In this document: piece after piece, positions 18,735-55,385 of the stretch
Layout: each line of letters begins with the position of its first letter
Position numbering within the stretch: the stretch's first letter is position 1
Position numbers and translations under genes: made by a program
The notes under the pieces: generated by a model
What the model was told of the DNA's origin: nothing
Databases searched by the model: none
Seen by the model: the letters and a program-made list of their open reading frames with translations, nothing else
Sequence record: PP658200.1
DNA length: 64,000 nucleotides
DNA from: Escherichia phage HY126
Reading direction: 5' to 3' (one strand)

Positions 18735-18769
18735 ATAGGTCTATTATATCATAATATTTAGAGACCTAT
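18735..18769 (-). promoter_or_regulatory. Hairpin-embedded -10 element upstream of gene 55
   Basis: Inverted repeat ATAGGTCT/AGACCTAT flanking TATAAT (minus sense), followed by AAGAGG SD and gene 55 ATG. Confidence 0.4.
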
Positions 18770-18785
18770 CTTAAAGCACGAGATA

Positions 18786-19055
18786 CTATCGGAGCAAACA
18801 ATAAGCCTGAAACACTTTTTCCATTAAACGTTTGAACTCATGGATATCGATATAAAGCTCAGTAAGACCGGCATTATAAAGAAAATCTAAAAAGTTCTCA
18901 TGTGTTTCGTTATAGTCGCCTTCGTTTAATTGAGACACATGAGTTTCCCAAAAACCAACACCTTTAACGAATGGAAAATACGTGACTTTCATGTATTCGT
19001 CAACATAAAATTCGCCCAGCTTTTCTTCAGTTATACTGATTCGAGTTAATTTCAT
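18786..19055 (-). CDS. Hypothetical protein
   Basis: ORF track 89 aa. Confidence 0.5.
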   Translation of the reverse strand: MKLTRISITEEKLGEFYVDEYMKVTYFPFVKGVGFWETHVSQLNEGDYNETHENFLDFLYNAGLTELYIDIHEFKRLMEKVFQAYCLLR

Positions 19056-19279
19056 TCTAGTTCCTTTGCTGCTTCAAGAGCAGCATCTAACGAATCAAAT
19101 TGGTCAACGAAATCGATATTCAACGCATCGTCAGCCGTAGCATATAGCCACCATTGTTTGAATTCATATTCTAGGATAAATCCAAGCCCTTCAATCTGAG
19201 AAAGACCTAGACTATTTGTACCAACTTCGTAACCGGCTAGACGCAGGTCATTAATCAAAGTTTCTGTTAATACGCTCAT
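19052..19279 (-). CDS. Hypothetical acidic protein
   Basis: ORF track 75 aa; overlapping start/stop with neighbours. Confidence 0.5.
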   Translation of the reverse strand: MSVLTETLINDLRLAGYEVGTNSLGLSQIEGLGFILEYEFKQWWLYATADDALNIDFVDQFDSLDAALEAAKELE

Positions 19280-19608
19280 TTTACCGCCTTAACAATTTTC
19301 AGGTCAACGAATTTTTTCTTACGTTGATTTTTCATACGACGGATAGTCTTTTCAGAGATTTCATGTTTCTGATAAGCTTTAGATTCAACACCAAATGCAG
19401 CAACGTCAAATTCAGAAAGAATATATTGTACTAGAATTTCACGAATAGAATTACGTCCAATTTTCTGGTCGTGTTTTTGCATGATTTCATAAAGACGGAA
19501 TTCCCATGCGTCAAGAACTTGAGGAGTAACAATATTGCCGGATTCCAGAAGAGCAACAACTTTATCGAAAGCGAAAGAATTAACTACGTTTTTGATTTTA
19601 GTAGACAT
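19276..19608 (-). CDS. Hypothetical protein
   Basis: Track ORF trimmed to ATG 19608 (GAGGAAAATAAT-ATG) downstream of promoter cassette. Confidence 0.5.
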   Translation of the reverse strand: MSTKIKNVVNSFAFDKVVALLESGNIVTPQVLDAWEFRLYEIMQKHDQKIGRNSIREILVQYILSEFDVAAFGVESKAYQKHEISEKTIRRMKNQRKKKFVDLKIVKAVK

Positions 19609-19645
19609 ATTATTTTCCTCGGTTATTTTATTATCCAATGATAGA

Positions 19646-19674
19646 ATTATACTCTGCTCTCAAGAGTTTATATA
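19646..19674 (-). promoter_or_regulatory. Early-type promoter cassette (degenerate -35, TATAAT)
   Basis: Near-identical copy of the 50061..50095 cassette (CTCTTGAGAGCAGAG-TATAAT) but with the -35 degraded to TATAAA. Confidence 0.4.
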
Positions 19675-19914
19675 CTATTTTTTAAGCATGAAAAGTAAGT
19701 AATTTGTATCACGTGGAGTAATATCAACACCCATATCAAAGATGCCTTTATAGATTGGGTATTTGTTTTCGGTTGTATCGAAGCTGAAACTATTTCCATC
19801 ACAACTAACAGTAATAGCATCTGTTAAAATGTCATACTCAATCCTAACAATTGAATCCCCAATTTTAACGTCGAGGTGTTTTTTGAATTTGATAAAATCT
19901 AATTCTTGGGCCAT
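19675..19914 (-). CDS. Hypothetical protein
   Basis: ORF track 79 aa. Confidence 0.5.
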   Translation of the reverse strand: MAQELDFIKFKKHLDVKIGDSIVRIEYDILTDAITVSCDGNSFSFDTTENKYPIYKGIFDMGVDITPRDTNYLLFMLKK

Positions 19915-19936
19915 GATATTTTCCTCATTTTAAGAC

Positions 19937-19975
19937 GATAGGAAGATAATAACATGTCTTCCTATCGTTGTACAT
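19937..19975 (-). promoter_or_regulatory. Promoter/stem-loop cassette
   Basis: Minus sense TGTACA-17-TATTAT with inverted repeat ATAGGAAGA/TCTTCCTAT flanking the -10; GAGG SD and ATG follow. Confidence 0.45.
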
Positions 19976-19977
19976 TA

Positions 19978-20190
19978 TTAACCGAACTTTTTAGCGCCTT
20001 TCCAGCCTTCATACATAGCTGCGCAAGTCAATAGCACAGCGTGTTGGCATTCTTTGTATTTGTAAATCCAGAACCAACGTAAAAAGTCTTCGTCCTCAAC
20101 ACCGTTGAGTTTCATATTGGCAAAGAATTCGGCACGTTCTTCACGAAGTTGCCATGACACAATATTTTCAGGATTCATTTTGTGTTCCAC
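19978..20190 (-). CDS. Hypothetical protein
   Basis: ORF track 70 aa. Confidence 0.5.
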   Translation of the reverse strand: MEHKMNPENIVSWQLREERAEFFANMKLNGVEDEDFLRWFWIYKYKECQHAVLLTCAAMYEGWKGAKKFG

Positions 20191-20309
20191 GCCCCATTTT
20201 CATCGATGAACTTAATCCAGTCATTTACGGACCATTTAGTTGTATCACCCTTTGGATTAACATTTAAAGTATATAATCCCTGCTTAAAAAGCATTCGTTT
20301 GATATTCAT
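20175..20309 (-). CDS. Hypothetical small protein
   Basis: Track ORF 20175..20402 trimmed to ATG 20309 (GAGG SD) to avoid overlap with 20317..20610. Confidence 0.35.
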   Translation of the reverse strand: MNIKRMLFKQGLYTLNVNPKGDTTKWSVNDWIKFIDENGAWNTK

Positions 20310-20316
20310 AATTTCC

Positions 20317-20610
20317 TCAACTGTAACGATAACATTCATTAGCTTTACGTTTGGCTTCAGTATGAGAAGTATTATAATCATAATCTTCTTTACTGTAAAC
20401 ATCTTTTTTCAACTTACGAACTTCTTTGCGGAGTTGTCGATTCATTTCGTTCTTGACTTCAGAATCAACGCCTTTCATACGTTTCCATTTATCTGAGCGG
20501 AATATGTTTTCAACCATGTCTTTGTGGCTAACACCGTCAGGAGCTTTACGTTTACCAAAATAGTCATAATCACGAACTTTCAAATCTTTACGACGATACG
20601 TTTTACCCAT
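20317..20610 (-). CDS. Hypothetical basic protein
   Basis: Track ORF trimmed to ATG 20610 preceded by GAGG. Confidence 0.45.
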   Translation of the reverse strand: MGKTYRRKDLKVRDYDYFGKRKAPDGVSHKDMVENIFRSDKWKRMKGVDSEVKNEMNRQLRKEVRKLKKDVYSKEDYDYNTSHTEAKRKANECYRYS

Positions 20611-20866: not shown

Positions 20867-21165
20867 GGCTTAATTTCCTTCGCAATTGAACAGAAGATAC
20901 CACGGTCACAAAGCATTTCACCAATTTCTGGATATTTGATTGAACGGTACCAAACATCCAGGCTTGAAACTCTGGTTATCTGTATTGCATTACCATTGAC
21001 AGAATAGTACTGGTCGACCTTAATTTCTTTATCTTCAATTGTCATTTTATTTTCCTCTATAGTAGATGGTTTAATCTTAACACATCTATTGAGGATGTAA
21101 ACTGTTTTATGAAAATATTTTCGATTTGAGAGGGGCACAAGGAGATAGTGAAGTGAAGATTCCAA
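20863..21165 (-). CDS. Hypothetical protein
   Basis: ORF track 100 aa. Confidence 0.5.
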   Translation of the reverse strand: MESSLHYLLVPLSNRKYFHKTVYILNRCVKIKPSTIEENKMTIEDKEIKVDQYYSVNGNAIQITRVSSLDVWYRSIKYPEIGEMLCDRGIFCSIAKEIKP

Positions 21166-24942: not shown

Positions 24943-25122
24943 TTAATAAATGTTATAAAAGTCACGATGGAAACGTTTGTATTGGCGAATCATTCTTTTA
25001 GTAGGACGTGTTACCGAAATGATTGAAGTCCTCATGTTCGGATTGTTTGGAGCACCAATTATAACAAATTTCCAAGATTTTTGACCGTTTGTTCTTTCGC
25101 CAAAAAATAATGCAGTTTTCAT
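24943..25122 (-). CDS. 59-aa basic protein, paralog of 25547..25717
   Basis: Hand-translated MKTALFFGERTNGQKSW...VTRPTKRMIRQYKRFHRDFYNIY; shares the RPTKR...R.HR.FY core with the second copy. Below ORF-track cutoff. Confidence 0.45.
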   Translation of the reverse strand: MKTALFFGERTNGQKSWKFVIIGAPNNPNMRTSIISVTRPTKRMIRQYKRFHRDFYNIY

Positions 25123-25131
25123 AATAAGCCC

Positions 25132-25717: not shown

Positions 25718-25845
25718 AATAATCTCTTCCCATTTCCATATCAATTAATTCATTTATTGAAGGTTCATCATAACACGTTTCTTCGTCATTGTAAACTGTT
25801 TCGACGTCTGGCTCGACTGTCTCCCATCGAGCCGAATACCACGGT

Positions 25846-26868: not shown

Positions 26869-27173
26869 TATAATGTTCTCTCAAATTTGTGGAAGCATTT
26901 ACGGCATTTCAATTTCAAGTTATCAGTGGTCCAGTTAACCAGTTGGACTTGGATAGTTCCACATTCCGGGCACGGATGTTTTGCTGCCGATTTGGCAGCA
27001 TTTTCACGTCGTTCAACCATTTTCATTATTTCGTTCCATGCCGGAGGAACGAACTCTTCTTCACCGTGGATTTTATCTCGCTGAACAAATTCAATCTTTG
27101 AACTATCGTCAATAAACTTAACCAAGCCGTGATTAGTGCTCATATCAATATCCTCTAAAAGACGTAGTTTCAT
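26868..27173 (-). CDS. Zinc-ribbon protein
   Basis: ORF track 101 aa; CPEC...CRKC. Confidence 0.5.
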   Translation of the reverse strand: MKLRLLEDIDMSTNHGLVKFIDDSSKIEFVQRDKIHGEEEFVPPAWNEIMKMVERRENAAKSAAKHPCPECGTIQVQLVNWTTDNLKLKCRKCFHKFERTL

Positions 27174-27847
27174 TATAAAACCTCAATGGCATTTCGTAAA
27201 CCATCAGCTTTTGCATTCAGAGCTTTTAATGATTTAGTTTGTTCTGCAATCTGGGCTTCGACTTCTTTCAGGCGAGATTTGAGATATTCGCGTTCTTCTC
27301 TTAAGTTATCAACTTTTTCTGCTTTAGGCTCTTTAATAGGCTTATACTCGTTAGGGTTCTTCAACTTAATTTGAATGCGAGAACTGTATAACATTGAACC
27401 ATTATCTTCGGTTTCATCATACATTTCTACCACGTCCATGATTCTTAACATCATGCGAAGTTTATAAGACAGCGAACGAATGGTTTTGTTGTGCTTATTA
27501 ATTTCTTCGGCTTTCATGGTACCGAGATTACGTGAGTAGTAATAAGGAACCTGGATATCAATTGATAATGATGCGGTACCATTACCTGTTGGTTTGAACA
27601 CTGCAGTAACCCAATCTTTAGCATGAACTGTATTTGTACGATCATCGCCACCTGTGAATAATTTACGTGAATGTTTAAAAAGCATATTCACTTGGTTATT
27701 GAATTCACAAGCAAATTTATCAGCAAATTTAGTTTCAGGAATGGTAGATAACCAATCAGCCAAATGAGTCTTTTTAACATCATTAACAATAGTGAATTCA
27801 ACCAAATCAGTTTTAGATGTCACAGATTTAATAAAGCTCGGCTTCAT
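27173..27847 (-). CDS. Paralog 1 of tandem family (C-terminal 224 aa from internal ATG); N-terminal region open but start codon is ACG
   Basis: In-frame extension of 95 codons upstream to a TAA at 28135..28133 contains no ATG/GTG/TTG; at the position where paralog 2 has ATG (SD GAGGAA + 6 nt) this copy has ACG at 28117..28115. Confidence 0.5.
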   Translation of the reverse strand: MKPSFIKSVTSKTDLVEFTIVNDVKKTHLADWLSTIPETKFADKFACEFNNQVNMLFKHSRKLFTGGDDRTNTVHAKDWVTAVFKPTGNGTASLSIDIQVPYYYSRNLGTMKAEEINKHNKTIRSLSYKLRMMLRIMDVVEMYDETEDNGSMLYSSRIQIKLKNPNEYKPIKEPKAEKVDNLREEREYLKSRLKEVEAQIAEQTKSLKALNAKADGLRNAIEVL

Positions 27848-28145
27848 AAAGTTTTTAATGTTATCGCGAGCTACAGTAGAAGATAATAAACGAGAACGTT
27901 TGAACCAATGAAGCAGTGTCCCTAATGAATGAGAATACGCATTCTGAGTATCTTTACAGATATGATTTTCTTGGCCTGTGTATGTACCAAAATCGCGAAG
28001 AATACCACTTACTACAACTCGGTGTGGAACATCAAATCCTAATGAACCAGAAGCACGTTGGGCATGAACGTTAGCGATAAGACCTGCAAAATAATCAATG
28101 TAATGTGAACGTGTCGTAATATTTTCCTCTCGTTAAGATAGAAAG

Positions 28146-28175
28146 ATTATACTCCAACCATCCTTGGTTGTAAAC
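28146..28175 (-). promoter_or_regulatory. Promoter/stem-loop cassette (GTTTACA, hairpin CAACCA-agga-TGGTTG, TATAAT)
   Basis: Minus sense GTTTAC-18-TATAAT directly after the stop of 28180..29115; repeated at 29142 and 30202. Confidence 0.5.
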
Positions 28176-29115: not shown

Positions 29116-29141
29116 TTTATATTCCTCATGTTGAAAAATTT

Positions 29142-29170
29142 ATTATACTCCAACCATCCTTGGTTGTACA
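29142..29170 (-). promoter_or_regulatory. Promoter/stem-loop cassette
   Basis: Minus sense TGTACA-17-TATAAT with CAACCA/TGGTTG hairpin; near-identical to 28146 copy. Confidence 0.5.
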
Positions 29171-30166
29171 TCATTCCTTAAGAAGTTTTACTACCTGAAT
29201 AAGATTAGCTCGTTCTGTTTTATTTTTACTGTTTAAGCCTGCTAATCGTGAGATTTCATCGTCAGTCTGTTGAATAGTTACATTAAGTTCGTTAATCAAA
29301 GCTTCAAAGTATTTGATTTGCTCAGCATGTTTTGATTCGAATTTCTGAACCGGAATAACGTCTTGGTTTAGTTCATCAATAAGGTCTTTAAGAGCATCTT
29401 CTTGGTTGATATCATATTCAACTTCTTTTATTTCTTCAACGAGCTCGTCTTTATATCTAACGTCTTTTAGTCCTGGTGCTGGTCCTGAAATCTCTTCTTT
29501 AAGAGTACAAACATATCCAATACGGTATCCAATGCTGTCTCGCTTGATATCAACTTCGTCAATAAATCCACAATGTTTAAGACCAGAGCCGATTAGGTCA
29601 AAATATCCTTGACGTCGTCCTTCAAACGTTACACGAACTACTAAGACAGTTTTACCTGCGACCTTTTGAAGCTCACATTTATAAAAGTCTGTTGAACCTG
29701 AATAACGTGGATGAGTTTTAAAGTTCATCTGACGATCTAGGCCCATTTGTAAGCGTGCTGATACGGCCATAAAACGTGTTTGGTTCTCGTTAAGATGTGC
29801 AACAATCCATTTCAAAGGCATTTTACACTGTTCACGGCCGAACAAATCAGTACGTCCTAGATTACGCAGGATGTTGTTAGAGTTAATCATCGACAGAACG
29901 TTAAGTTTATTCAGCGCGCTGAAGATTCCATCAGCCATTGATTTTCCGTAACCTTTACACGCTTTAATAAGCGCTCGCGGTAGATTAGTATAGATTTCAG
30001 ATGGCATATGAAAATCAAATTTACTAGTCAGTAATTGATGAACTTGGATAGCAATTTGCTCATAATTAAGTGCTCTGCGATCATTATGGTCTTTAAACCA
30101 CACTTTAATCTGTGAAGCACATAAACCGTTAATTTCATGTTTTACCGCATCAGATGTAATGCTCAT
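29171..30166 (-). CDS. Paralog 3 of tandem family, coiled-coil C-terminus
   Basis: ORF track 331 aa; MSITSDAVKHEING... Confidence 0.6.
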   Translation of the reverse strand: MSITSDAVKHEINGLCASQIKVWFKDHNDRRALNYEQIAIQVHQLLTSKFDFHMPSEIYTNLPRALIKACKGYGKSMADGIFSALNKLNVLSMINSNNILRNLGRTDLFGREQCKMPLKWIVAHLNENQTRFMAVSARLQMGLDRQMNFKTHPRYSGSTDFYKCELQKVAGKTVLVVRVTFEGRRQGYFDLIGSGLKHCGFIDEVDIKRDSIGYRIGYVCTLKEEISGPAPGLKDVRYKDELVEEIKEVEYDINQEDALKDLIDELNQDVIPVQKFESKHAEQIKYFEALINELNVTIQQTDDEISRLAGLNSKNKTERANLIQVVKLLKE

Positions 30167-30201
30167 AACTATTTCCTCAGATTGAATTGGAACTCAAAAC
30201 C

Positions 30202-30224
30202 ATTATAACCCATCCTTGGGTAAA
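30202..30224 (-). promoter_or_regulatory. Promoter/stem-loop cassette (degenerate)
   Basis: TTACC, hairpin ACCCA-agga-TGGGT, TATAAT on minus strand. Confidence 0.4.
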
Positions 30225-30228
30225 GCGT

Positions 30229-30756: not shown

Positions 30757-30774
30757 GTTTTACCTCCAGTAGTT

Positions 30775-30812
30775 GATAGGTCTATAATATCATAACCATA
30801 GACCTTGTAAAC
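30775..30812 (-). promoter_or_regulatory. Promoter/stem-loop cassette
   Basis: Minus sense GTTTAC-17-TATTAT; inverted repeat AGGTCTAT/ATAGACCT brackets the -10. Confidence 0.5.
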
Positions 30813-31240: not shown

Positions 31241-32242
31241 TTATTTCAGTAAAGTTACTTCGGAGATTTCTTCCCAACCATCTTTATCAGTTGAAATAAA
31301 ATCTGCTACATAAAGAGCCGTACGTAACGATACATTGCGAAGACGAGATACGTTAGCCTTCATCCAGGACAATGCTTTATACGTTTCTGCATCCGTCAGA
31401 CCACGTTTCTGCATCATGTCAGTAGATAATATTACATCTTCAACTCGAACCATAATCTCTTCATTAGAGTGTACTCCAAGGTCGAGATACACTGAACGAG
31501 ATACTAAAGCTTGAAGGTGTGGGGCAAGTTTCGAACCGCGTTCTAACTCTTTATCGATATCAACGTTTGTAATGAAAACGATAGTACCTTCAAACTCAAA
31601 TTCTTTATCAATACCCTTATCATCGAGATAAGATGACGCAGTGCTCCAGCAAACTTTGCGTTTATCTCCAGTATCTAATGCTGCTTTAAGAAGGTTCAAG
31701 ATGTCCATATCCGAGAATACGTCAACGTCGTCGATTAAGAGAACGCTGTCTGCATCACGGTTGAGCCAAAGTTGTTCGTAAAGGCCAATACCGGAGATTT
31801 TACCATTAATGCTTTTGTATTTGATGAAACCGTTATCATTAGCATTATTAAGTGCTTTATCCAGAGAATACGTCTTACCAATACCAGCTGCACCTGAAAT
31901 AATGAGTGAACGAATTTTGCCATCGATAATGCCATTCGTCATCATGTTCATTACTTTAAAGCGTTTGTTGATACGAGTTTTCATATCTTCAGTGCTTTCA
32001 ACAACTGCAACTGGTGACGTCTCAACTCCTTCCATTACGATGTCTGATTTGAAGACCCATACTCCACGTTCAGAACCATCAATCATAACGAAAATTTTAC
32101 CATCACCTAAGTGGGAACATTCAGGATTAAGCTTTGCCGGGAACCAGGTCTTTGTGGCAACATAAGAACCAGAGATTTCGTTATTACGATAGATACCTTT
32201 TTTGATTTGAACGTTGAACATTTTATTCTCCAATTTACTCAT
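31241..32242 (-). CDS. AAA+/P-loop ATPase of unknown function
   Basis: ORF track 333 aa; Walker A SGAAGIGKTY, Walker B VLLIDDVD, sensor-like FITN. Confidence 0.6.
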   Translation of the reverse strand: MSKLENKMFNVQIKKGIYRNNEISGSYVATKTWFPAKLNPECSHLGDGKIFVMIDGSERGVWVFKSDIVMEGVETSPVAVVESTEDMKTRINKRFKVMNMMTNGIIDGKIRSLIISGAAGIGKTYSLDKALNNANDNGFIKYKSINGKISGIGLYEQLWLNRDADSVLLIDDVDVFSDMDILNLLKAALDTGDKRKVCWSTASSYLDDKGIDKEFEFEGTIVFITNVDIDKELERGSKLAPHLQALVSRSVYLDLGVHSNEEIMVRVEDVILSTDMMQKRGLTDAETYKALSWMKANVSRLRNVSLRTALYVADFISTDKDGWEEISEVTLLK

Positions 32243-32250
32243 TTCGTTTC

Positions 32251-32288
32251 GATAGGTCTATAATAACATATCCTAAAAGCATGTACAC
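32251..32288 (-). promoter_or_regulatory. Promoter cassette
   Basis: GATAGGTCTATAATAACA...TGTACAC motif (minus sense GTGTACA ... TTATTATAGACCTATC). Confidence 0.45.
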
Positions 32289-34832: not shown

Positions 34833-34958
34833 TTTACCATACTCGTTTCAATAAGATTCACTATGCCGTTTACCATGTTATAAGTAAACATCGGATAATT
34901 GTATTGTACTACAACATAAGCGATAAGCAAAAGTTTCATTTTGTTCTCCGTTTGTTTT

Positions 34959-35393: not shown

Positions 35394-35400
35394 AACGTTC

Positions 35401-35448: not shown

Positions 35449-35459
35449 CTGCTAAATGC

Positions 35460-36631: not shown

Positions 36632-36632
36632 C

Positions 36633-39022: not shown

Positions 39023-39032
39023 TTTGATTTCT

Positions 39033-41222: not shown

Positions 41223-41552
41223 TTATACTCTAGGCTTTTGAGCTTGTTTGGTATTGGATTCCCATGCAGCTTTGGTAATTTTGTTAGCGGCATAACCAAA
41301 GGCATTAGATAGAACACCTTTAGAGTTGAATACATCCAATCCAATAAGTACACCGGCTGCGTTAAATTTAGGAGCAAAGTATGCATTAGTTTTAGAAAGA
41401 GCTTTTTTCAATTCAGGGTCTTGAACCAAACCATCAAAAACGCCTTTACTATTTACTTTATATGTTACTTTGGGATTTTTACCTTCTTCGATAGCAGCTT
41501 TCTGTTCCGCAGATAATGTAACTTCAGTGATAAACTCTTGATACGTTTTCAT
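41223..41552 (-). CDS. Internal-protein-like, capsid targeting sequence MKTYQEFITE
   Basis: ORF track 109 aa; N-terminal 10 aa match T4 IP targeting/protease-cleavage leader. Confidence 0.65.
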   Translation of the reverse strand: MKTYQEFITEVTLSAEQKAAIEEGKNPKVTYKVNSKGVFDGLVQDPELKKALSKTNAYFAPKFNAAGVLIGLDVFNSKGVLSNAFGYAANKITKAAWESNTKQAQKPRV

Positions 41553-41577: not shown

Positions 41578-41892
41578 TTATTCTTTAGGGAAGTTTTTAG
41601 AGTATGCATCATAAAGTTTATTACCGATGCGACGGAAGACTTTAGCTGCAAAACGGTTTTCAGGGTTTTTAATCATGATTTGCATCATGTAAGTTCCTGC
41701 ATCCGAAAGAGCTTCTTCATAGTACCCATTAATTTCTTTAAGAGTCCTACGTTTACCACCAGGACCATCAACAGTAATTTTCCATTTACCTGTAGAAGTG
41801 CGGCTAGGTGGCTCAACTTGTTCAATCCAAATATAACCACCTTCAACGCGTTGGTTGGCGGATTCTGCAATAAATTCTTTATACGTTTTCAT
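41578..41892 (-). CDS. Internal-protein-like, capsid targeting sequence MKTYKEFIAE
   Basis: ORF track 104 aa. Confidence 0.65.
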   Translation of the reverse strand: MKTYKEFIAESANQRVEGGYIWIEQVEPPSRTSTGKWKITVDGPGGKRRTLKEINGYYEEALSDAGTYMMQIMIKNPENRFAAKVFRRIGNKLYDAYSKNFPKE

Positions 41893-41913
41893 TTTTGTTT
41901 CCTTGGTTGTTTT

Positions 41914-41952
41914 GATAGAGTAATTATACCATATTAATACTTAAGCGTAAAC
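41914..41952 (-). promoter_or_regulatory. Early-type promoter (GTTTAC-18-TATAAT)
   Basis: Minus sense GTTTAC and TATAAT upstream of 41578..41892; -35 abuts the stop of 41956..42216. Confidence 0.45.
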
Positions 41953-41955: not shown

Positions 41956-42216
41956 TTAAGCTTTACCGCCAGAAATAATTCCGAAGTTGTTAAAATCGTA
42001 TCCAATATCGTCAACATCTACTTTAGGGCTTGCTACAACATAAGCAATTTCACTACGTTTTGCATAGGTGTTGATTTCTTTACCATCGCCACCTAAGAAA
42101 AAATACCCATTACGTTTTAATGAGCCAAAGTCTTCCGCATCACCAATGAAAGCTTTAACTTTAAATTTAGGACCTTTGGCATCTGCTTCAGCGATAAATT
42201 CTTGATACATTTTCAT
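41956..42216 (-). CDS. Internal-protein-like, capsid targeting sequence MKMYQEFIAE
   Basis: ORF track 86 aa. Confidence 0.65.
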   Translation of the reverse strand: MKMYQEFIAEADAKGPKFKVKAFIGDAEDFGSLKRNGYFFLGGDGKEINTYAKRSEIAYVVASPKVDVDDIGYDFNNFGIISGGKA

Positions 42217-42636: not shown

Positions 42637-42641
42637 AATTT

Positions 42642-42693
42642 CCTCCAAGTAGTTGATGAATGTATAGTATCAAAACCCTTGGAGGAAGTAAAC
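42642..42693 (-). promoter_or_regulatory. Promoter/stem-loop cassette with SD in 3' arm (upstream of denV)
   Basis: Minus sense GTTTAC-tt-CCTCCAAG...TACTATAC...CTTGGAGG-aaatt-ATG. Confidence 0.5.
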
Positions 42694-42694: not shown

Positions 42695-42976
42695 CTATTT
42701 TTCTGAAGCGCCTGAAATATATTTTTCAAGACGTTGTTTCATCAGCGAGCCGTTCTTAGCGATTTCTTCCGGTTTATCGCACATACGTAACAAGGCTTCA
42801 AGCTTAGCGATATCGCTGGTACGTTCAAATTTGCGAGTATCTATCTTACTAGCAAGTTCAGAAATACGTGCTAGTAGACTTTCGGCTTCAACCAAAGCTG
42901 CACCTAGCTTAGTTGCAAATGTGTCAGTAGCTTCGTTAAGAATAGATTCTGATAAAAATTCACTATAGGTTTTCAT
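42695..42976 (-). CDS. Internal-protein-like, capsid targeting sequence [10 protein letters not shown]
   Basis: Track ORF trimmed to ATG 42976, overlapping gene e stop (ATGA). Confidence 0.65.
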
Positions 42977-45661: not shown

Positions 45662-45680
45662 AATATTCTCCTCATGTTTA

Positions 45681-45718
45681 ATAGGACTACTATAACATAG
45701 TCCTATCAGTTTGTACAC
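45681..45718 (-). promoter_or_regulatory. Promoter/stem-loop cassette
   Basis: Minus sense GTGTACA...TGTTATAGTAGTCCTAT with inverted repeat ATAGGACTA/TAGTCCTAT. Confidence 0.5.
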
Positions 45719-45919: not shown

Positions 45920-45948
45920 TTTTATATCTCCATTCACTCATTTGTTTT

Positions 45949-45987
45949 GATAGGTCTATAGTATCAACAACTACAGACCTTGTAAAC
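45949..45987 (-). promoter_or_regulatory. Promoter/stem-loop cassette
   Basis: Minus sense GTTTACA-AGGTCT...TACTATAGACCTATC; -35 abuts the stop of 46000..46956. Confidence 0.5.
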
Positions 45988-47224: not shown

Positions 47225-47243
47225 TGTGGACTCCATTTAATTT

Positions 47244-47282
47244 GATAGGACTACTATAACATAGCCCTATCTTGTTGTAAAC
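47244..47282 (-). promoter_or_regulatory. Promoter/stem-loop cassette
   Basis: Minus sense GTTTACA...TGTTATAGTAGTCCTATC. Confidence 0.5.
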
Positions 47283-48081: not shown

Positions 48082-48437
48082 TTTCTACATTCCTTAATAA
48101 AGTTTTCGATTGTTTCATTTTCACGTCTAGCTAGGAGTTCATTATAACTAATCATTTGAGAAGCGTAAACCTTTTTATTTTTCTTGTTGTGGTTTATAAA
48201 ATCGTAGTAAAAATAGACTACAGTACAAAATGATGCGATGGATGCAAAGGCTTGGGTATACCGTAAGTCCTGCCATTGGTCTGTGAATCCACCAGTGTTC
48301 CCTATAAATCCTAACACAACGCCGTCAATAAGAAATCCAACTAATCCAAAGGCAAATCCCATGCCAATACTCATAATAAAAATTAGAATGTTCTCACCAA
48401 GAGAAGGCCATACGGTTAAGAGTTGAGGCTTTTGCAT
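48078..48437 (-). CDS. Membrane protein, C-terminal ENFIKECR motif family
   Basis: ORF track 119 aa; two TM helices; ends ENETIENFIKECRK. Confidence 0.55.
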   Translation of the reverse strand: MQKPQLLTVWPSLGENILIFIMSIGMGFAFGLVGFLIDGVVLGFIGNTGGFTDQWQDLRYTQAFASIASFCTVVYFYYDFINHNKKNKKVYASQMISYNELLARRENETIENFIKECRK

Positions 48438-50025: not shown

Positions 50026-50060
50026 ATTATTACCTTTCAATTGGTGGTTTATTATCCAAT

Positions 50061-50095
50061 GAGAGCATTATACTCTGCTCTCAAGAGTTTGTAAA
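50061..50095 (-). promoter_or_regulatory. Early-type promoter TTTACA-17-TATAAT with GAGAGC/GCTCTC repeat
   Basis: Read directly; canonical spacing; inverted repeat brackets the -10; duplicated at 19646..19674. Confidence 0.45.
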
Positions 50096-50323
50096 TTATT
50101 TTTTAATCAAATTGACATAAAACTTGGCGTCTTCGGGGTGCATGCCTTCACAGTATTCTTCAACCATGAACTTCTTAACAGCTTCATAAGGACCGCTCAG
50201 ATTAAGCTCAGTTGTCCAGAACTTGGAATCTTGGACTGAATCGATACGAACTTCAGGGTGTCGGTTGCGAATAACTTCTTCGGTGTATTCATAATCAACG
50301 ACATCAATACTAACTTTAGCCAT
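50096..50323 (-). CDS. Hypothetical protein
   Basis: ORF track 75 aa. Confidence 0.5.
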   Translation of the reverse strand: MAKVSIDVVDYEYTEEVIRNRHPEVRIDSVQDSKFWTTELNLSGPYEAVKKFMVEEYCEGMHPEDAKFYVNLIKK

Positions 50324-50342
50324 TTTGTTTTCCTCTTGATTT

Positions 50343-50380
50343 GATAGGACTACTATAACATAAACTTACTTAGATGTAAA
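50343..50380 (-). promoter_or_regulatory. Promoter cassette TTTACA-17-TATAGT + AGTCCTATC
   Basis: Minus sense; -35 overlaps the stop codon of 50370..50534. Confidence 0.5.
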
Positions 50381-50534
50381 TTATTTCAACGTCACCTTTA
50401 GCTGCTTTATAACCTTCAGCCCAAGATACAACAGAGTTTTTATCTGAGGATTCAAATTCAGGCATTGGGCTTTCGCCAATGTTCACACAGTATGTTTCTT
50501 CATTTTCGTCAAACCAAATAATTAAAGTAGTCAT
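50370..50534 (-). CDS. Hypothetical 54-aa protein
   Basis: Track ORF trimmed to ATG 50534 (MTTLIIWFDENEETY...). Confidence 0.4.
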   Translation of the reverse strand: MTTLIIWFDENEETYCVNIGESPMPEFESSDKNSVVSWAEGYKAAKGDVEIIYI

Positions 50535-50555
50535 TTTGTTTACTCCTCTGTAGTT

Positions 50556-50593
50556 GATAAGTCTATAGTAACACCGTCCTTGGCGTTTGTACA
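50556..50593 (-). promoter_or_regulatory. Promoter cassette TGTACA...TTACTATAGACTTATC
   Basis: Minus sense; -35 abuts stop of 50594..51097. Confidence 0.5.
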
Positions 50594-51097
50594 TCATTTA
50601 TTTTTAATTTTGCAAATTTTTTCTGCTTCAGCAATTGCAGCGTCAATGATGCTTTGTGCAATTTTATTACTAGTTGACCTGGCAATCACACTAAGAACAA
50701 TTTCTTTTTCTTCACCACCCCAACCCCAAGTCCTTTGTTCGTGGGTACCTTTAACTACAGCTGAAACTTCAACAGAACGTCCACCATCAGAAGTTTTAAC
50801 ATCTACAACCCAATCACCATCTTTCTCTTCTACCCTTGATTTATCCCAAGAAATACTAATATATGATTCGCTGTCAATAGAAGTCGCCGGGTTTTTCTCT
50901 ACCGTAAGACCTTCACTTTCCAGCCATTCAATAGTATTTGCGCATAAATCAGAAGAACACCTCATCGGAAACCTGCAAGATTTTTCACCTTTAGCTGCAG
51001 TGTTATACATCTTTTCTAAAATACGCTTTTGCACGTTTTTAAAAATAGTTTCAGCAGATTCTTCAGATTTTTTATTCAGTTCGGTATAAAGACTCAT
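50594..51097 (-). CDS. Hypothetical protein
   Basis: ORF track 167 aa. Confidence 0.55.
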   Translation of the reverse strand: MSLYTELNKKSEESAETIFKNVQKRILEKMYNTAAKGEKSCRFPMRCSSDLCANTIEWLESEGLTVEKNPATSIDSESYISISWDKSRVEEKDGDWVVDVKTSDGGRSVEVSAVVKGTHEQRTWGWGGEEKEIVLSVIARSTSNKIAQSIIDAAIAEAEKICKIKNK

Positions 51098-51116
51098 AAC
51101 ATTTTCCTCATGTTTT

Positions 51117-51154
51117 TATAGGTCTATAGTAACACATCTAGGGAAGAAGTAAAC
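51117..51154 (-). promoter_or_regulatory. Promoter cassette GTTTAC...TTACTATAGACCTATA
   Basis: Minus sense, upstream of 50594..51097. Confidence 0.5.
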
Positions 51155-51186
51155 AACTTTTTCAGTAAGTTATAGACCCCCTAATG

Positions 51187-51202
51187 GGGACCGAAGTCCC
51201 CA
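51187..51202 (-). terminator. Stem-loop GGGGAC-UUCG-GUCCCC immediately 3' of 51207..51833
   Basis: 6-bp GC stem with UUCG loop 5 nt after stop; no U tract, so may be a stability element rather than a terminator. Confidence 0.35.
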
Positions 51203-51206
51203 TTCT

Positions 51207-51833
51207 TTACTTACGAGTTTTTGCATACTGAGCAGCGTCAGCAGCCAAACGACCTGCCTGACGAAGTTTTTCTTTAATCGCATCGTGAAGTGGTTGAGTA
51301 TACTTCAAACCTTCGATAGTCAAATAAAGACGATAAAGGTCTGGGGTATCAAGGTTGTTGATATGTTGGCCATTACGAAGACTGTTGAATTCACGAACGA
51401 GTGAAGATGTATCGGATTCAATATCACGAACAAGCGAAGATAGTTGTTTATATTTTTTTTCCAGGCTAGAAGTATCAAACTTAAGAGCAGGAGCTTTAGG
51501 AGTTGCTTTTACTTCCGGCTTAGGCTCAGGTTTTGCTATTGCTTTAGGGGTCGCAGGTTTAGGAACGGTAGGAGCAGGTTTTACTTTAGGCGAACCCGAT
51601 TTAGCAGAAACACCGCCACTAACAATATCTTTGAATGCTTTAGAAGCTCTGTAATATTCTTTTTGGCTGGAAGTGTCGATACCATACATGGCTTGAACGT
51701 TTTTGAAAAACTCTGTACTAGTTTTTGTACCAGAAATAGCATCGTAAGCAGCTTGCCATTTCTCTTTTGTCATACGTACACCGGCTTCGGTGATTACTTC
51801 CGTTTCGGCTAAAAATTCATTAAAAGTATACAT
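51207..51833 (-). CDS. Internal-protein-like (leader MYTFNEFLAE) with Lys/Pro/Ala-rich central region
   Basis: ORF track 208 aa; CTS-like leader; SPKVKPAPTVPKPATPKAIAKPEPKPEVKATPKAP low-complexity segment. Confidence 0.6.
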   Translation of the reverse strand: MYTFNEFLAETEVITEAGVRMTKEKWQAAYDAISGTKTSTEFFKNVQAMYGIDTSSQKEYYRASKAFKDIVSGGVSAKSGSPKVKPAPTVPKPATPKAIAKPEPKPEVKATPKAPALKFDTSSLEKKYKQLSSLVRDIESDTSSLVREFNSLRNGQHINNLDTPDLYRLYLTIEGLKYTQPLHDAIKEKLRQAGRLAADAAQYAKTRK

Positions 51834-51868
51834 TGATGGTCCTTAGAAAGTAGGTTTATTGTTTACTA

Positions 51869-51877: not shown

Positions 51878-51906
51878 AAAAAAGCCCCAACCTTTCGGAA
51901 GGGGCT
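51878..51906 (-). terminator. Rho-independent terminator (AGCCCC-loop-GGGGCU + U6)
   Basis: GC stem and six U on the minus-strand transcript, 3' of the ORF-free 51950..52200 region. Confidence 0.7.
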
Positions 51907-52554: not shown

Positions 52555-52633
52555 ATTTTCCTCACTTAAAGTTGGTGCCTCTAGAAAGATTTGAACTCTC
52601 ACCATTAACCTTAGAACGATTATATGCTATCCA

Positions 52634-53299
52634 TTACACTATAGAGGCAATTAAATTATTTACAATATCTTCTTTATAAACTTCAGCATAATGAAGTTCA
52701 TATATTTCCCATCCTAATGATTTTATAATATCATGGCGTTCTTTATAATAAGGGGCCAAAATCTTTTTCTTAGGATTGGAGTAATGTTGGTTTCCATTAA
52801 CTTCAATAATAATCTTTTTATCTATTAAAGCAATATCCGTGCAATACGCTCGGTTTTTAACCGGTTGGTATTCTTCAATAAATGAAATTCCGTTTTCTAT
52901 TAATTTAGATTTCAAAAATTCACAAGGCACAGATTTAAATTTTGTATTTTTCTTCCAAGGATGTTTATCAGGGTTTTCATTCAACCATTTTTTCCGAGCA
53001 TTAGATATTTTTATTCTAGATTCCTCAGAGTGTTCTCTACCTAATGAAGCGGCTGACAATTTTTGTCTAGTCTCTTCCGAAATTACTACAGGGACACCAG
53101 TCTTTTTAGATACAACATACTGGTTTAAATTACCTGAAGCTATACGTGCTTTATTCATTGCTGCAATGGCTGATTTAGAACTTTCTTTATACAATTCCAA
53201 TTTAGGGTTGGATTTACACCATCTAGTGTGGTTAGCCATCCATCCTTTAGGTTTATTAGAAATATCAAATTCCATATTACAATGTTTACAAATGCTCAT
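52634..53299 (-). CDS. Freestanding homing-endonuclease-like protein (Zn finger + NUMOD-like repeats + DUF559/Vsr-like nuclease)
   Basis: CKHC...HTRWC; ISEETRQKLSAASLGREHSEESRIKISNARK; IIEVNGNQHY...ELHYAEV; start at ATG 53299 (track start is TTG 53305). Confidence 0.6.
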   Translation of the reverse strand: MSICKHCNMEFDISNKPKGWMANHTRWCKSNPKLELYKESSKSAIAAMNKARIASGNLNQYVVSKKTGVPVVISEETRQKLSAASLGREHSEESRIKISNARKKWLNENPDKHPWKKNTKFKSVPCEFLKSKLIENGISFIEEYQPVKNRAYCTDIALIDKKIIIEVNGNQHYSNPKKKILAPYYKERHDIIKSLGWEIYELHYAEVYKEDIVNNLIASIV

Positions 53300-53309
53300 T
53301 ACCAATTAT

Positions 53310-53373: not shown

Positions 53374-53445
53374 CTGGCGCACTTGGACTCGAACCAAGAT
53401 AAAGGAGTTAACAGCTCCCCGTAATAACCTTTATACGATGCACCA
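53374..53445 (-). tRNA. tRNA-Asn (anticodon GUU), CCA not encoded
   Basis: Hand-folded: acceptor TGGTGCA/TGCGCCA, D-arm with GG, anticodon stem GGGAG/CTCCT loop CTGTTAA, T-arm CTTGG-TTCGAGT-CCAAG. Confidence 0.8.
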
Positions 53446-53526: not shown

Positions 53527-53605
53527 TAAATAACTTTCTATTATGAAAGGCACTTTAGAGCACCTTTGGTAATAGAGGGTATGAATTAATAATAACACAT
53601 AATTC

Positions 53606-54121
53606 TTAAAGCAAATCAATCATTTTAACAGTCGGCAAAACAATTTCTTCTTCAATATAAGCGAATTCAACACGTTCAACTACACGCAAGAAATCATAGT
53701 CGTAGTATTCAGAAGCATAGCCAAGAATATCAATAAGGCCTTGGGATATCTCATCGCCTTTCACAAAGAACAGGTCGAATACACGCGATTCGTCTTCTTC
53801 AGATTTATTACCAAGGTCGACTTCAATATCAAAGACCTTTTTAATGAATTCTGGATAAAGCTGGTCTGAGAACAGTCCTTCAACCAAGTATTCATAGATT
53901 AAAAGCGAGCAATCACTGAATGGTGTATTACCACAGTAACGTTCAGCTTTAGTGCTAGAATGACGACTCTTAAATTTCTTCAAGAGATATTTAAACTGTT
54001 GGAGCTCATGCTCTTCTACACCAAATAATGTTTTGGTTTTATAGTTGTCGCCGTCATTTTCCCAAGTAGTGACATCAATTACGTAACCTTTAGGAATTGT
54101 ACTGCCTAAACAAATATTCAT
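53606..54121 (-). CDS. Hypothetical acidic protein
   Basis: ORF track 171 aa. Confidence 0.55.
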   Translation of the reverse strand: MNICLGSTIPKGYVIDVTTWENDGDNYKTKTLFGVEEHELQQFKYLLKKFKSRHSSTKAERYCGNTPFSDCSLLIYEYLVEGLFSDQLYPEFIKKVFDIEVDLGNKSEEDESRVFDLFFVKGDEISQGLIDILGYASEYYDYDFLRVVERVEFAYIEEEIVLPTVKMIDLL

Positions 54122-54125
54122 TTAC

Positions 54126-54416
54126 TCACCGTACCATATTAATGTAATTATATTCAATGCAACATAATTTCAAAGGATTCTTGAAAATATCATATTCAAG
54201 AGGACCTTTTTCTGTTTCAATAAAGAAATCAAAGTTCACACTATTAAATTTGCGGTCTTCCCAAAGTAATTTAACCTGTGAAGATGAACGGTCGACGTAA
54301 ACCTTTTCAACTTCAAAGTGGGTCAAAATACCATAGTAATCGACTAGTGCTTTAGCTGCAGCTCGGTCGCTTTCATATCCATTCTCAACGGATTTTACCT
54401 TAGCATAAAGAATCAT
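54126..54416 (-). CDS. Hypothetical protein
   Basis: ORF track 96 aa. Confidence 0.5.
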   Translation of the reverse strand: MILYAKVKSVENGYESDRAAAKALVDYYGILTHFEVEKVYVDRSSSQVKLLWEDRKFNSVNFDFFIETEKGPLEYDIFKNPLKLCCIEYNYINMVR

Positions 54417-54775
54417 GAATGTTCCACCATTTCAAAGGTATGAGCATCAACAATATGATACCAGTCAAAATTTTCTTCTGCGTTTTTACAAATTTCGCGA
54501 AGAGCCTCAACAGTTTTTCCTGTAGCAACAAGGTCGTCAATACCGCCAAGAGGATAACAGTCGTAACCGGCAAACAGAAGGAAATTAATAGTTTCTGTAG
54601 GGGCCGGATGCAGTGTACCATTGTCATCGACTACTTCAAAGAACATATAACCAGGCGATTTAGATTTAATCCAAGCCCATGCTTGAGCTGCTGAATCAAA
54701 TGGTCTGCGTATCAAACGACAATCAGGGTCTTTAGAAGGATTTGCTTCAAAATCCGCATATACGTGATATTTCAT
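54413..54775 (-). CDS. Hypothetical protein
   Basis: Track ORF trimmed to ATG 54775 (MKYHVYADFE...). Confidence 0.5.
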   Translation of the reverse strand: MKYHVYADFEANPSKDPDCRLIRRPFDSAAQAWAWIKSKSPGYMFFEVVDDNGTLHPAPTETINFLLFAGYDCYPLGGIDDLVATGKTVEALREICKNAEENFDWYHIVDAHTFEMVEHS

Positions 54776-54776
54776 T

Positions 54777-54962
54777 TTACTCACCTTTTGCAATTTTATC
54801 CATAACGATAGCGATTAAGCCGATTAGAAATGCTACTACCAATGAGATAGAATTTTCTGTTGTTGTCAGTAGTCCACAAATGAATCCTACAAACATCGAA
54901 AAACTAAAAGCCATTGAAGCAATTACTACAGCAACATTACGAATCAGTTCAGCGCGTTTCAT
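54777..54962 (-). CDS. Small membrane protein
   Basis: Track ORF trimmed to ATG 54962 with GGAG SD; two TM helices. Confidence 0.45.
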   Translation of the reverse strand: MKRAELIRNVAVVIASMAFSFSMFVGFICGLLTTTENSISLVVAFLIGLIAIVMDKIAKGE

Positions 54963-54991
54963 TTTATTTCTCCATTTACTCATTTTGTTTT

Positions 54992-55030
54992 GATAGGACT
55001 ACTATAACATAGTCCTATCAGCGTGTAAAC
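54992..55030 (-). promoter_or_regulatory. Promoter/stem-loop cassette
   Basis: Minus sense GTTTACA...TGTTATAGTAGTCCTATC; -35 abuts stop of 55034..55321. Confidence 0.5.
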
Positions 55031-55033
55031 TAC

Positions 55034-55321
55034 TTACAGAAGAGTTTTTGCAATAATTTTAAGCTGAGCTACAGAAATGTGCTTAGCTTTAAACAGTGCA
55101 GTCTCTTCAGCCGGAGAGATAACAATAGTAGCGCCATCTTTCTTAGCGGACCACCCGTCTCCTAAGTAAACAGTACCTTTTACTTCTTCGCCGTCAGCTA
55201 GACTAATCATTGGTTTACCCTCACGGCCTTTGTTTGCTTTAATAACTTCGGAAGTAAGGGTTGCTTCAGTCAGAGTAGAAACGTTAGCAACAGGTGATAT
55301 AAATTCTTTATAGGTTTTCAT
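55034..55321 (-). CDS. Internal protein I-like (MKTYKEFISP leader), positional ipI
   Basis: ORF track 95 aa; CTS leader; lies just upstream of 57B as ipI does in T4. Confidence 0.7.
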   Translation of the reverse strand: MKTYKEFISPVANVSTLTEATLTSEVIKANKGREGKPMISLADGEEVKGTVYLGDGWSAKKDGATIVISPAEETALFKAKHISVAQLKIIAKTLL

Positions 55322-55346
55322 TTTATTTCCTTGAGGTTGTTTATTT

Positions 55347-55385
55347 GATAGGATGATAGTAACACACCATCATCCTTATGTAAAC
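55347..55385 (-). promoter_or_regulatory. Promoter/stem-loop cassette
   Basis: Minus sense GTTTACA-taAGGATGATG...TTACTATCATCCTATC; 8-bp inverted repeat. Confidence 0.5.

Follow-up and report, generated by a model that had tools for sequence, protein, structure and literature searches.

Cassettes that join an early promoter to a stem-loop, and hairpins that hide a ribosome-binding site while enclosing a promoter, have both been described in T4-type phages, and both bear on a 64,000-nucleotide stretch of Escherichia phage HY126 (sequence record PP658200.1; the whole stretch is here called the window), in which repeated copies of a short promoter cassette, many with an inverted repeat, punctuate the early genes. 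The former, the PeSLs of RB49 and phi1 (Arbiol et al. 2010), combine an early promoter (Pe) with a stem-loop (SL) in hyperplastic regions, and five positions of the stem-loop were distinguished, the commonest lying in the interval that separates the -35 from the -10 or overlapping the -10. The same study showed promoter activity, terminator activity of one RB49 stem-loop and the formation of mini-circles, mapped one mini-circle crossover to the loop, and speculated that a DNA-binding protein might target the stem-loop; it also credits Repoila et al. 1994 with the observation of analogous elements, AT-rich and built on T4 early promoters, at the internal protein (IP) loci of T-even phages. Comeau et al. 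2014 extended PeSLs to T4/PST (TTTACW-N17-TAYWAT) and to KVP40/nt-1, and described the PmSLs. For RB69, Nolan et al. 2006 predicted 58 early promoters and noted a C-rich stretch at -3 to -1. The T4 reviews, for their part, list hairpins that sequester the Shine-Dalgarno (SD) sequence and contain a nested promoter at e, soc, 49 and I-TevI, all of these promoters being late ones. Their section on regB speaks only of an early promoter shut off at 2–3 min and of self-cleavage at the SD (RegB needs a single-stranded GGAG), and the mechanism of early shut-off is, according to the same reviews, not understood. SD hairpins with an embedded early promoter receive no mention in these reviews, the older primary literature being outside that check, and a literature search for T4 differential RNA-seq (dRNA-seq) or Term-seq papers gave no relevant match.

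By megablast, the window belongs to the T4-type genus Mosigvirus, in the RB69/JS09/mar005P1 group, with ~97% identity to many deposited phages. The annotated relatives give the gene order of its 18–57 kb portion, all on the minus strand, as 55.x-nrdG-nrdD-49-pin-nrdC.x-mobD.x-rI-tk-vs-regB-vs.x-IP genes-denV-e-nudE-e.x-tRNA-ipI-57B-1, which corresponds to the classic hyperplastic early region known from T-even phages. The reading favoured here, at a probability of roughly 0.72, is that the cassettes in this region, about half of which carry a hairpin straddling the transcription start, are early promoters of T4 type in a Mosigvirus and conform to the published PeSL type, and that they serve as portable homology for the exchange of open reading frames (ORFs).

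A scan for GTTTAC-N16-19-TAnnnT returned 22 matches against 4.0 expected, 19 of the 22 on the minus strand. The two-block extended profile built from the copies (A-rich UP, GTTTAC(A), 17 bp, TGn, TAnnnT, (A/T)nnCCTATCAA) finds 24 copies on the minus strand and no copy either on the plus strand or in shuffled sequence, whereas the same DNA scanned with a generic sigma-70 consensus stays at chance level (71 vs 71.3; 68 vs 61.6). Since the profile is specific where the generic scan is not, the motif constitutes a discrete, phage-specific promoter class. All the profile copies fall in 19.9–55.4 kb, i.e., the 55.x through ipI early region, with none in 1–19 kb or 56–64 kb, a concentration judged from the 64-kb window alone. 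The chance-level generic scan could be cited for regarding the motif as a compositional artefact of an AT-rich genome; this explanation is already refuted by the counts just given, and the fixed position of the copies between a stop codon and an SD, together with their orthology to RB69 and T4 promoters, leaves it with virtually no probability.

Aligned copies give the extended consensus aAAata-GTTTACA-(spacer)-TGT-TATaAT-agaCCTATCaaa, and the consensus of the 24 copies reads aAAataGTTTACA-N-TGTTATaAT, the -35 in some being GTGTAC, ATGTAC or ATTTAC. They have the marks of a T4-type Pe (-35 GTTTAC(A/T), 17-bp spacer, TGn extended -10, TAnnnT and a UP at about -40 to -44) set in the PeSL layout, in which the stop codon upstream falls within an AT-rich tract and the SD and ATG occupy the 3' end. 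Each of the 24 lies on the coding (minus) strand immediately 5' of an early gene or ORF with an SD, the ATG of most lying 56–71 nt downstream of where the -35 starts. The initial annotation had the -35 usually within a few nucleotides of the preceding stop codon; this describes most copies, with the -35 starting 0–14 nt past the stop in 15/24 and slightly overlapping it in two more, but in three it starts 46–53 nt away, with a GC-rich hairpin between, and in four it lies inside the upstream coding sequence (CDS).

The proposed kinship with the PeSLs of T4-type phages is borne out by orthology: 23 of the 24 copies (the exception is 27201) map onto the RB69 early-promoter coordinates predicted by Nolan et al. 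2006, and eight have T4 counterparts. The density that the initial annotation had called striking is, on the other hand, ordinary, as the orthologous region of T4 has the same (21 matches vs 2 expected; the T4 GenBank record has no promoter features, and its promoters were located by scanning). The same architecture recurs in more than 120 stretches of T4-type contigs in an IMG/VR scan, and no Rfam family covers the cassettes. From class membership and orthology, it is very likely that the copies function as promoters. All 21 sites of the initial annotation, which had counted about twenty, are present on the minus strand; its attribution to GTTTAC-type promoters stands for 19 and fails for two, at 18735 and 30202, and its list lacked five copies, at 48170, 27201 (weak), 25796, 21102 and 20400.

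An inverted repeat bracketing the -10, claimed as a general feature, is present in about half of the copies. When the spacer of each copy is paired with its own sequence between the -10 and the ATG, 10/24 yield a perfect Watson-Crick stem, 7 bp or longer, compared with 2.6% of shuffles and 8.9% of cross-copy chimeras, and a permutation of self versus chimera pairings in the window reached the observed mean in 0/2000 trials. With G.U pairs and in-spacer hairpins included, ~12–14 of the 24 have a hairpin, leaving about half without, and the RNA-fold z is -2.7 or lower for 11 of 20 cassettes. In class A (n=9; 55385, 55030, 50096, 47282, 45987, 45718, 34997, 30812 and 19975, cassettes being referred to by their higher coordinate), the 3' arm combines the end of the -10 with the discriminator and extends to +3 at most. 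In class B (n=3), it is the SD: at regB (39079) the stem has 14 bp, at denV (42693) 10 bp and at mobD.2a (35449) 8 bp, so that the SD-containing arms claimed for the sites at 39033, 42642 and 35401 are confirmed structurally, and compensatory covariation across lineages lends comparative support to the logic of sequestration at the three genes. The early promoters 29171 and 28175 and the middle promoter at 30202 have hairpins within the spacer, on CCAAGGATGG. In every strong hairpin, the 5' arm lies in the spacer, upstream of the predicted +1, and the hairpin can thus form only on RNA started further upstream, or in DNA; in class B, the predicted +1 of the nested promoter falls between the arms, so its own transcripts would lack the 5' arm. 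The sites are as follows, all on the minus strand.

55322–55385, minus: ipI early promoter; class A hairpin, arms 55376–55368 and 55358–55350; fold z -3.3; RB69 Pe:77187.
54963–55030, minus: trna.4 early promoter; class A, TGATAGGACTAT/GTAGTCCTATCA (55020–55009 and 55002–54991); z -5.6; RB69 Pe:76459.
51098–51154, minus: early promoter; no strong internal hairpin; GC-rich hairpin at 51183–51204 upstream.
50535–50594, minus: early promoter (ATGTAC -35) of a 54-aa ORF; RB69 Pe:72567.
50324–50381, minus: frd.3 early promoter; without hairpin.
50026–50096, minus: e.6 early promoter; class A, TGAGAGCA/TGCTCTCA (50083–50076 and 50067–50060); z -2.7; RB69 Pe:72069.
48082–48170, minus: early promoter within the e.3 CDS; without hairpin; RB69 Pe:70143.
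47225–47282, minus: early promoter; class A, GATAGGGCTAT/GTAGTCCTATC, with G.U pairs; z -3.9; RB69 Pe:69254.
45920–45987, minus: early promoter of a 72-aa ORF; class A, AGGTCTGTA/TATAGACCT; z -3.3.
45662–45718, minus: early promoter (GTGTAC); class A, TGATAGGACTAT/GTAGTCCTATTA; z -3.5.
42637–42693, minus: denV early promoter; class B, SD-sequestering, TTCCTCCAAG/CTTGGAGGAA (42687–42678 and 42649–42640); z -3.7.
41893–41952, minus: early promoter of an IP-like ORF; without hairpin; RB69 Pe:64193.
39023–39079, minus: regB early promoter; class B, SD-sequestering, TTCTCCTCTAGTTG/CAACTAGAGGAGAA (39073–39060 and 39042–39029); z -4.0.
35394–35449, minus: mobD.2a early promoter; class B stem TTCTCCTC/GAGGAGAA; terminator-like GGGGCTTTTT upstream.
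34940–34997, minus: early promoter of a mobD.2-like ORF; class A, TTGGTAGGACTAT/GTAGTCCTATCAA; z -3.6.
32222–32288, minus: nrdC.10 early promoter (GTGTAC); no strong hairpin; GC-rich hairpin upstream.
30757–30812, minus: nrdC.8 early promoter; class A, AGGTCTATG/TATAGACCT.
30167–30228, minus: nrdC.6 middle promoter with MotA box (CGCTTTA-N13-TATAAT); in-spacer hairpin ACCCAaggaTGGGT; site 30202 of the initial annotation.
29116–29171, minus: nrdC.5 early promoter (ATGTAC); in-spacer hairpin CAACCAaggaTGGTTG.
28118–28175, minus: nrdC.3 early promoter; in-spacer hairpin as at 29171; downstream start codon ACG.
27165–27201, minus: weak match in the nrdC.3/nrdC.2 overlap, with the lowest profile score (16.7), absent from the Nolan list and doubtful as an early promoter because its -10 overlaps the nrdC.2 ATG.
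25718–25796, minus: early promoter ahead of 49.1, within the upstream CDS; without hairpin; RB69 Pe:48639.
21046–21102, minus: early promoter ahead of 55.6; 6-bp stem TAGATG/CATCTA; RB69 Pe:43945.
20310–20400, minus: early promoter within 55.5, ahead of 55.4; without hairpin; RB69 Pe:43242.
19915–19975, minus: early promoter (ATGTAC); class A, ACGATAGGAAGA/TCTTCCTATCGT, 12 bp perfect; z -3.9; RB69 Pe:42816.
18714–18778, minus: gene 55 middle promoter (TGCTTTA box); hairpin ATAGGTCT/AGACCTAT; the variant at 18735 of the initial annotation.

A role of the stems as canonical Rho-independent terminators was considered and rejected, as no U-tract follows them: downstream of the class A and B stems, the sequence is A-rich (CCTATCAAAAC) and a terminator scan does not pick them up. 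Separate canonical terminators stand upstream of only three cassettes.

The evidence that the pairing is selected comes from comparison. Among the promoters of the orthologous T4 region, 7/15 have a stem of at least 7 bp, against 2.9% in chimeras (permutation 0/5000), and in six of the eight orthologous T4/window pairs (ipI, trna.4, denV, regB, mobD.2 and nrdC.8), both members have such stems with different arm sequences. Thus, the T4 orthologue of the denV promoter retains a 10-bp stem of different sequence, and at nrdC.8 the spacer pairs with the SD in T4 and with the discriminator in the window. At the regB loci of more distant T4-type contigs (RegB identity 56–77%), the anti-SD/SD helix is kept and its extension covaries (CTAGTTG/CAACTAG, CTTGACTG/CAGTTAAG, CTTTATG/CATAAAG and TGTAAG/CTTACA), with compensatory double changes at five positions across four lineages. 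As a MAFFT alignment set the arms of the regB promoters out of register, the pairs were anchored by hand, and since a DNA-pattern scan for regB promoters in IMG/VR gave mostly chance matches (5/55 real), the contigs were retrieved by a protein-anchored search. These comparisons show, at the level of sequence, that the hairpins are under selection.

A neutral origin might be proposed in its place, by which cassettes spread whole through duplication and recombination and their quasi-palindromes become perfect through templated mutation (strand switching). Quasi-palindromes are known to undergo templated correction in T4, and several window cassettes are near-identical to one another (identity 0.9–1.0), 28175 and 29171 sharing an identical 29-bp core. 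However, such a process leaves unaccounted for the persistence of hairpins at orthologous T4 and window promoters through complete turnover of the arm sequences, and even a change of pairing partner, as well as the retention of the regB stem in at least four lineages at 56–77% RegB identity. The stems also comprise at least nine unrelated arm sequences and tolerate G.U but not A.C, which points to selection on one strand. On balance, the neutral account appears distinctly improbable.

An IMG/VR scan in which the covarying positions were left free gave >120 stretches and 125 distinct cassettes, 31% with a stem of at least 7 bp. Of 35 cases with TAGG in the spacer, 14 have beside it a triplet that complements the free 3' triplet exactly (permuted mean 4.2; 0/10000), a further sign that the pairing is selected, and the single mismatches in that triplet, read on the sense strand, comprise eight G.U, no A.C and three others, compared with 30/12/58% expected. 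A first G.U versus A.C test, on helices with internal mismatches, had yielded only 3 vs 1 and was underpowered; the triplet test on the 125 cassettes took its place. Sense-strand folds average 1.4 kcal/mol more stable than antisense ones (34 vs 22, p=0.012), and the orthologues of 34997 form an A-U, G.U, G-C series (GATAGG/CCTATC, GGTAGG/CCTATC and GGTAGG/CCTACC). Because of the G.U pairs without A.C, the stability of the sense folds and the 34997 series, it is likely that the helix is selected on the sense strand, i.e., in the read-through RNA.

The same observations bear on the alternative that the inverted repeats act as DNA, by hairpin or cruciform extrusion, as recombination sites for endonuclease VII or another structure-specific protein, so that shuffling would be the selected property and any RNA effects incidental. 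Crossover junctions do lie within cassettes, the arms are stable as single-stranded DNA, and the protein speculated upon by Arbiol et al., with their mini-circle crossover in the loop, would fit such a role. Yet a cruciform would place an A.C on the opposite strand for each sense-strand G.U; the SD-containing arms of regB and denV, with their covarying extensions, fit RNA and not DNA; the stems always straddle the start site, for which a recombination signal has no reason; and the 50346|50528 crossover between two window cassettes lies in a -10/CCTATCAA core common to cassettes with and without hairpins, its partner 50381 being without one. Action at the DNA level is consequently regarded as unlikely. 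Still less can be said for the palindromes as operators at which a dimeric phage or host protein would switch early promoters off: the outer half-sites GATAGG/CCTATC do recur, overlapping the -10 and the start site, and the want of an understood mechanism of T4 early shut-off in the reviews leaves room for such a protein, but half of the promoters have no 5' half-site, the class B and in-spacer hairpins have unrelated sequences, and the inner arm bases vary freely between copies and still covary, a signature of base pairing and not of protein recognition. A single protein operator was rejected on the covariation of the arms, and the operator explanation as a whole is very improbable.

For the early-promoter cassettes with RNA hairpins, the following course of events is envisaged. 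Each cassette, which sits immediately between the stop codon that ends one small early gene and the SD that serves the next, would act as a very strong host sigma-70 promoter by virtue of its UP, -35 GTTTACA, TGn, -10 and conserved CCTATCAA start region. Only read-through RNA from an upstream promoter would form the hairpin; transcripts started at the cassette itself would never do so. For the class B genes regB, denV and mobD.2a, the read-through RNA, with its SD in the 3' arm, would be translationally silent, and it would also hide the GGAG target from RegB, because RegB needs single-stranded RNA; RegB, DenV and MobD.2a would accordingly be made only from their own promoter-proximal early transcripts. 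This putative gating is, thanks to covariation, the best supported of the mechanistic steps. Many cassette SDs also match the published 11-nt RegB/S1 target GGAGAAUAAAA, e.g., at 54975–54965 (GGAGAAATAAA), 35402–35393 and 45672–45662, so that the cassette would carry a signal for RegB inactivation of its own transcript as well. Class A stems might serve as intercistronic insulators on read-through RNA, either as attenuators or as barriers to 3' exonucleases, a role that is a guess. A broader proposition, held only tentatively, is that start-straddling hairpins are a general, selected T-even feature that marks the origin of a transcript, tying early gene translation (class B, with regB, denV, mobD.2a and T4 nrdC.8), and perhaps class A processing or decay, to a gene's own promoter and to the first 2–3 minutes.

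Near-identical sequence of ~30–50 bp shared between cassettes would furnish the portable homology by which single ORFs might be gained, lost or swapped. Six Mosigvirus relatives, compared with the window, provide 37 non-redundant indel or replacement events in 17–57 kb, and of their 66 end points, 18 fall in cassettes, although cassettes make up just 5.3% of the sequence (p=5.5e-9). Chimeric junctions mark five clean events from cassette to cassette, in keeping with the module exchange at cassette boundaries that had been anticipated. FL18 is without nrdC.5 between the identical cassettes 29171 and 28175, the overlap at the junction being 53 bp. The 72-aa ORF between 45987 and 45718 is missing in RB69, PhAPEC2, FL18 and LF82-8 (indel 45706|45981), and RB69 has a single promoter where the window has two around a small ORF. 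The 54-aa ORF between 50594 and 50381 is missing in Mizar and PhAPEC2 (crossover 50346|50528), the Mizar junction being a chimera that links the -35 to -10 of one cassette to the SD/ATG of the other and has its crossover point within TATAG(A/T)CCTATCAA. ORF-plus-cassette insertions are found at 55030, where Mizar and LF82-8 have an inserted IP-like ORF, and at 32288, where PhAPEC2 and FL18 have 244 bp inserted. In addition, FL18 and LF82-8 have a 594-bp insertion just upstream of the mobD.2a cassette 35449, and a replaceable module, 51160–51856, bounded by the -35 of cassette 51154 and by a conserved terminator, is replaced in p000y and PhAPEC2.

Sequence likeness among the cassettes of one genome accords with these junctions. 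The discriminator/start region (positions +1 to +6 from the end of the -10) is lineage-specific, with AGTCCT (6 copies) and AGACCT (5) in the window and ACAACT (3) in T4, and several cassettes are closer to paralogues within their own genome than to their T4 orthologues, the best paralogue identity of several near-identical window cassettes being 0.9–1.0. These patterns suggest either that the cassettes evolve in concert or that a constraint particular to each lineage acts on the sequence transcribed first; the likeness is consistent with exchange among cassettes and shows signs of homogenization.

Several observations nevertheless weigh against the favoured reading in one or other of its parts. 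Because half of the cassettes are without a hairpin, the hairpin is not required for promoter function, and the class A stems neither touch the SD nor, with their A-rich instead of U-rich tails, resemble canonical terminators. The arms are also stable as single-stranded DNA (-5 to -12 kcal/mol, z -2.5 to -6.3), which leaves action at the DNA level some probability, and the G.U/A.C and sense/antisense tests rest on related, non-independent sequences. As for exchange, nearly all end points lie at gene boundaries, and against that null the excess in cassettes is modest (17/51 vs 23/99, p=0.066), while other events use other homology, e.g., the conserved 5' end (MKTYQEFI, capsid-targeting) of tandem internal-protein genes. 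Homologous crossover between cassettes is shown to underlie a handful of events and is not the dominant source of indels here.

The neighbouring variation has features of its own. Five ORFs begin with the capsid-targeting motif MKTY(Q/K/S)EF(I/L) (41223–41552, 41578–41892, 41956–42216, 42695–42976 and 55034–55321, minus); Mizar is without two of the five, with a crossover in the conserved 5' coding sequence ATGAAAACNTATCAAGA(A/G)TTTATC and a 38-bp overlap, and both Mizar and LF82-8 have an extra IP-motif ORF beside ipI. The ORF at 51207–51833, which is swapped for unrelated ORFs in p000y and PhAPEC2, is bracketed by the conserved terminator AGCCCCTTCCGAAAGGTTGGGGCTTTTTT (51878–51906, minus), with a TATAAATA resembling a T4 late promoter directly after it, and by a second GC hairpin, GGGGACTTCGGTCCCC (51183–51204, minus). 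A 59-aa ORF between gene 49 and pin (24947–25131), present in the window, RB69 (ORF087c) and p000y, is missing in mar007P3, Mizar, PhAPEC2 and LF82-8, with junctions away from any early-promoter cassette. The tk.1/tk.2/tk.3-type small ORFs 3' of tk (36631–37219) differ in set between relatives, with break points exactly at gene boundaries and no promoter cassette there. The most variable part of the window, the tRNA region, is likewise not associated with cassettes: between tRNA-Arg (52573–52648) and tRNA-Asn (53374–53445), it holds a 223-aa ORF (52634–53305, minus), at whose position Mizar has an annotated homing-endonuclease-like protein with a NUMOD3 motif and mar007P3, FL18, LF82-8 and RB69, which are without the ORF, have ~105 bp. 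Finally, 3' of cassette 28175, the NrdC.3 homologue has ACG (28117–28119, minus) where RB69-group relatives have the ATG start (GAGAGGAAAATATTACGACACGT in the window vs ...ATTATGACACGT in the relatives), the remainder of its 316-codon frame being intact; this could be a start-codon mutation, leaving a pseudogene or a non-canonical start, or a sequencing variant.

The two sites that fall outside the GTTTAC class, 18735 and 30202, are without the -35 box and have a MotA-type box and a hairpin instead. Site 30202 (CGCTTTA-N13-TATAAT) aligns with the mapped T4 PnrdC.7, its positional orthologue, with a covarying hairpin, and at site 18735 the sequence, with a box-to-TATAAT spacing of 23, is near-identical to the part of T4 in which the middle promoter P55 has been mapped; judged by these alignments, 18735 and 30202 are the orthologues of the MotA-dependent T4 middle promoters P55 and PnrdC.7, respectively. 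The palindromic core CCAAGGATGG recurs in the spacers of the nrdC.x series, in early and middle promoters alike (28158–28170, 29154–29166 and 30209–30221, minus), and also in T4 (around 10950 and 13340 of the T4 stretch L002), and its flanks covary, being TACCAaggaTGGTA and GCCACAaggaTGTGGT in T4 vs ACCCAaggaTGGGT and CAACCAaggaTGGTTG in the window.

In the main, these results confirm textbook T4 biology, in which each early gene of the hyperplastic regions has its own very strong promoter that doubles as a linker for gene shuffling, and the Mosigvirus genomes add clean cases, resolved to the base, of ORFs gained and lost between one cassette and another. They also supply comparative evidence for sense-strand selection on promoter-embedded hairpins, including SD stems at regB and denV that are not listed in the T4 reviews consulted. 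The cassettes are a further instance of a published class, and only the covariation evidence for the start-straddling hairpins, those of regB and denV especially, exceeds the published descriptions consulted.

Compared with the known systems, the cassettes have the same UP/-35 GTTTAC/TGn/-10 architecture and C-rich -3 to -1 as the RB69 and T4 early promoters (Nolan et al. 2006; Hinton 2010), which published accounts treat as promoters only, start-straddling hairpins not being discussed in the Pe literature covered. With the PeSLs, they share the succession of stop codon, AT-rich tract, strong early promoter, stem-loop, SD and ATG, a fit to the T4/PST consensus TTTACW-N17-TAYWAT, the commonest position of the stem-loop, the clustering in a hyperplastic region, and indel junctions between close relatives in the flanking cassettes. 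They differ in that their stems are AT-rich, of variable sequence, and without the G4/C4 motif and the U-tract, so that the terminator activity of the RB49 stem-loop may not apply to them; moreover, Mosigvirus lay outside the analyses of Arbiol et al. 2010 and Comeau et al. 2014, to which covariation evidence and an SD-pairing subclass are added here. The middle-promoter sites, in turn, resemble the PmSLs (Comeau et al. 2014) and T4 P55/PnrdC.7 in joining a MotA-type box to a hairpin, whereas PmSLs were described in vibriophage nt-1 and the box-to-(-10) spacing at the gene 55 site of the window is atypical. The class A stems recall the REP-type intercistronic stabilizer hairpins of E. coli operons, being stable intercistronic structures that could stop 3' exonucleases and let neighbouring cistrons decay separately; they have no sequence relationship to REP elements, and this function is entirely putative for them.

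The closest parallel to class B is provided by the hairpins of T4 e, soc, 49 and I-TevI, in which RNA from a distal promoter hides the SD and a promoter inside the helix yields a translatable RNA without the 5' arm. The gene e logic invoked in the initial annotation thus holds for the nested promoter, with the timing reversed: in those four T4 genes, a late promoter (TATAAATA) is the nested one and translation is late only, whereas in regB, denV and mobD.2a it is an early one of the GTTTAC type and translation is predicted to be early only. If true, this would be the mirror image of the late-promoter hairpins of gene e, soc and I-TevI and part of the unexplained rapid shut-off of early protein synthesis; if confirmed, the control of translation by choice of promoter, known for late genes, would extend to early ones and help explain why their synthesis stops so abruptly.

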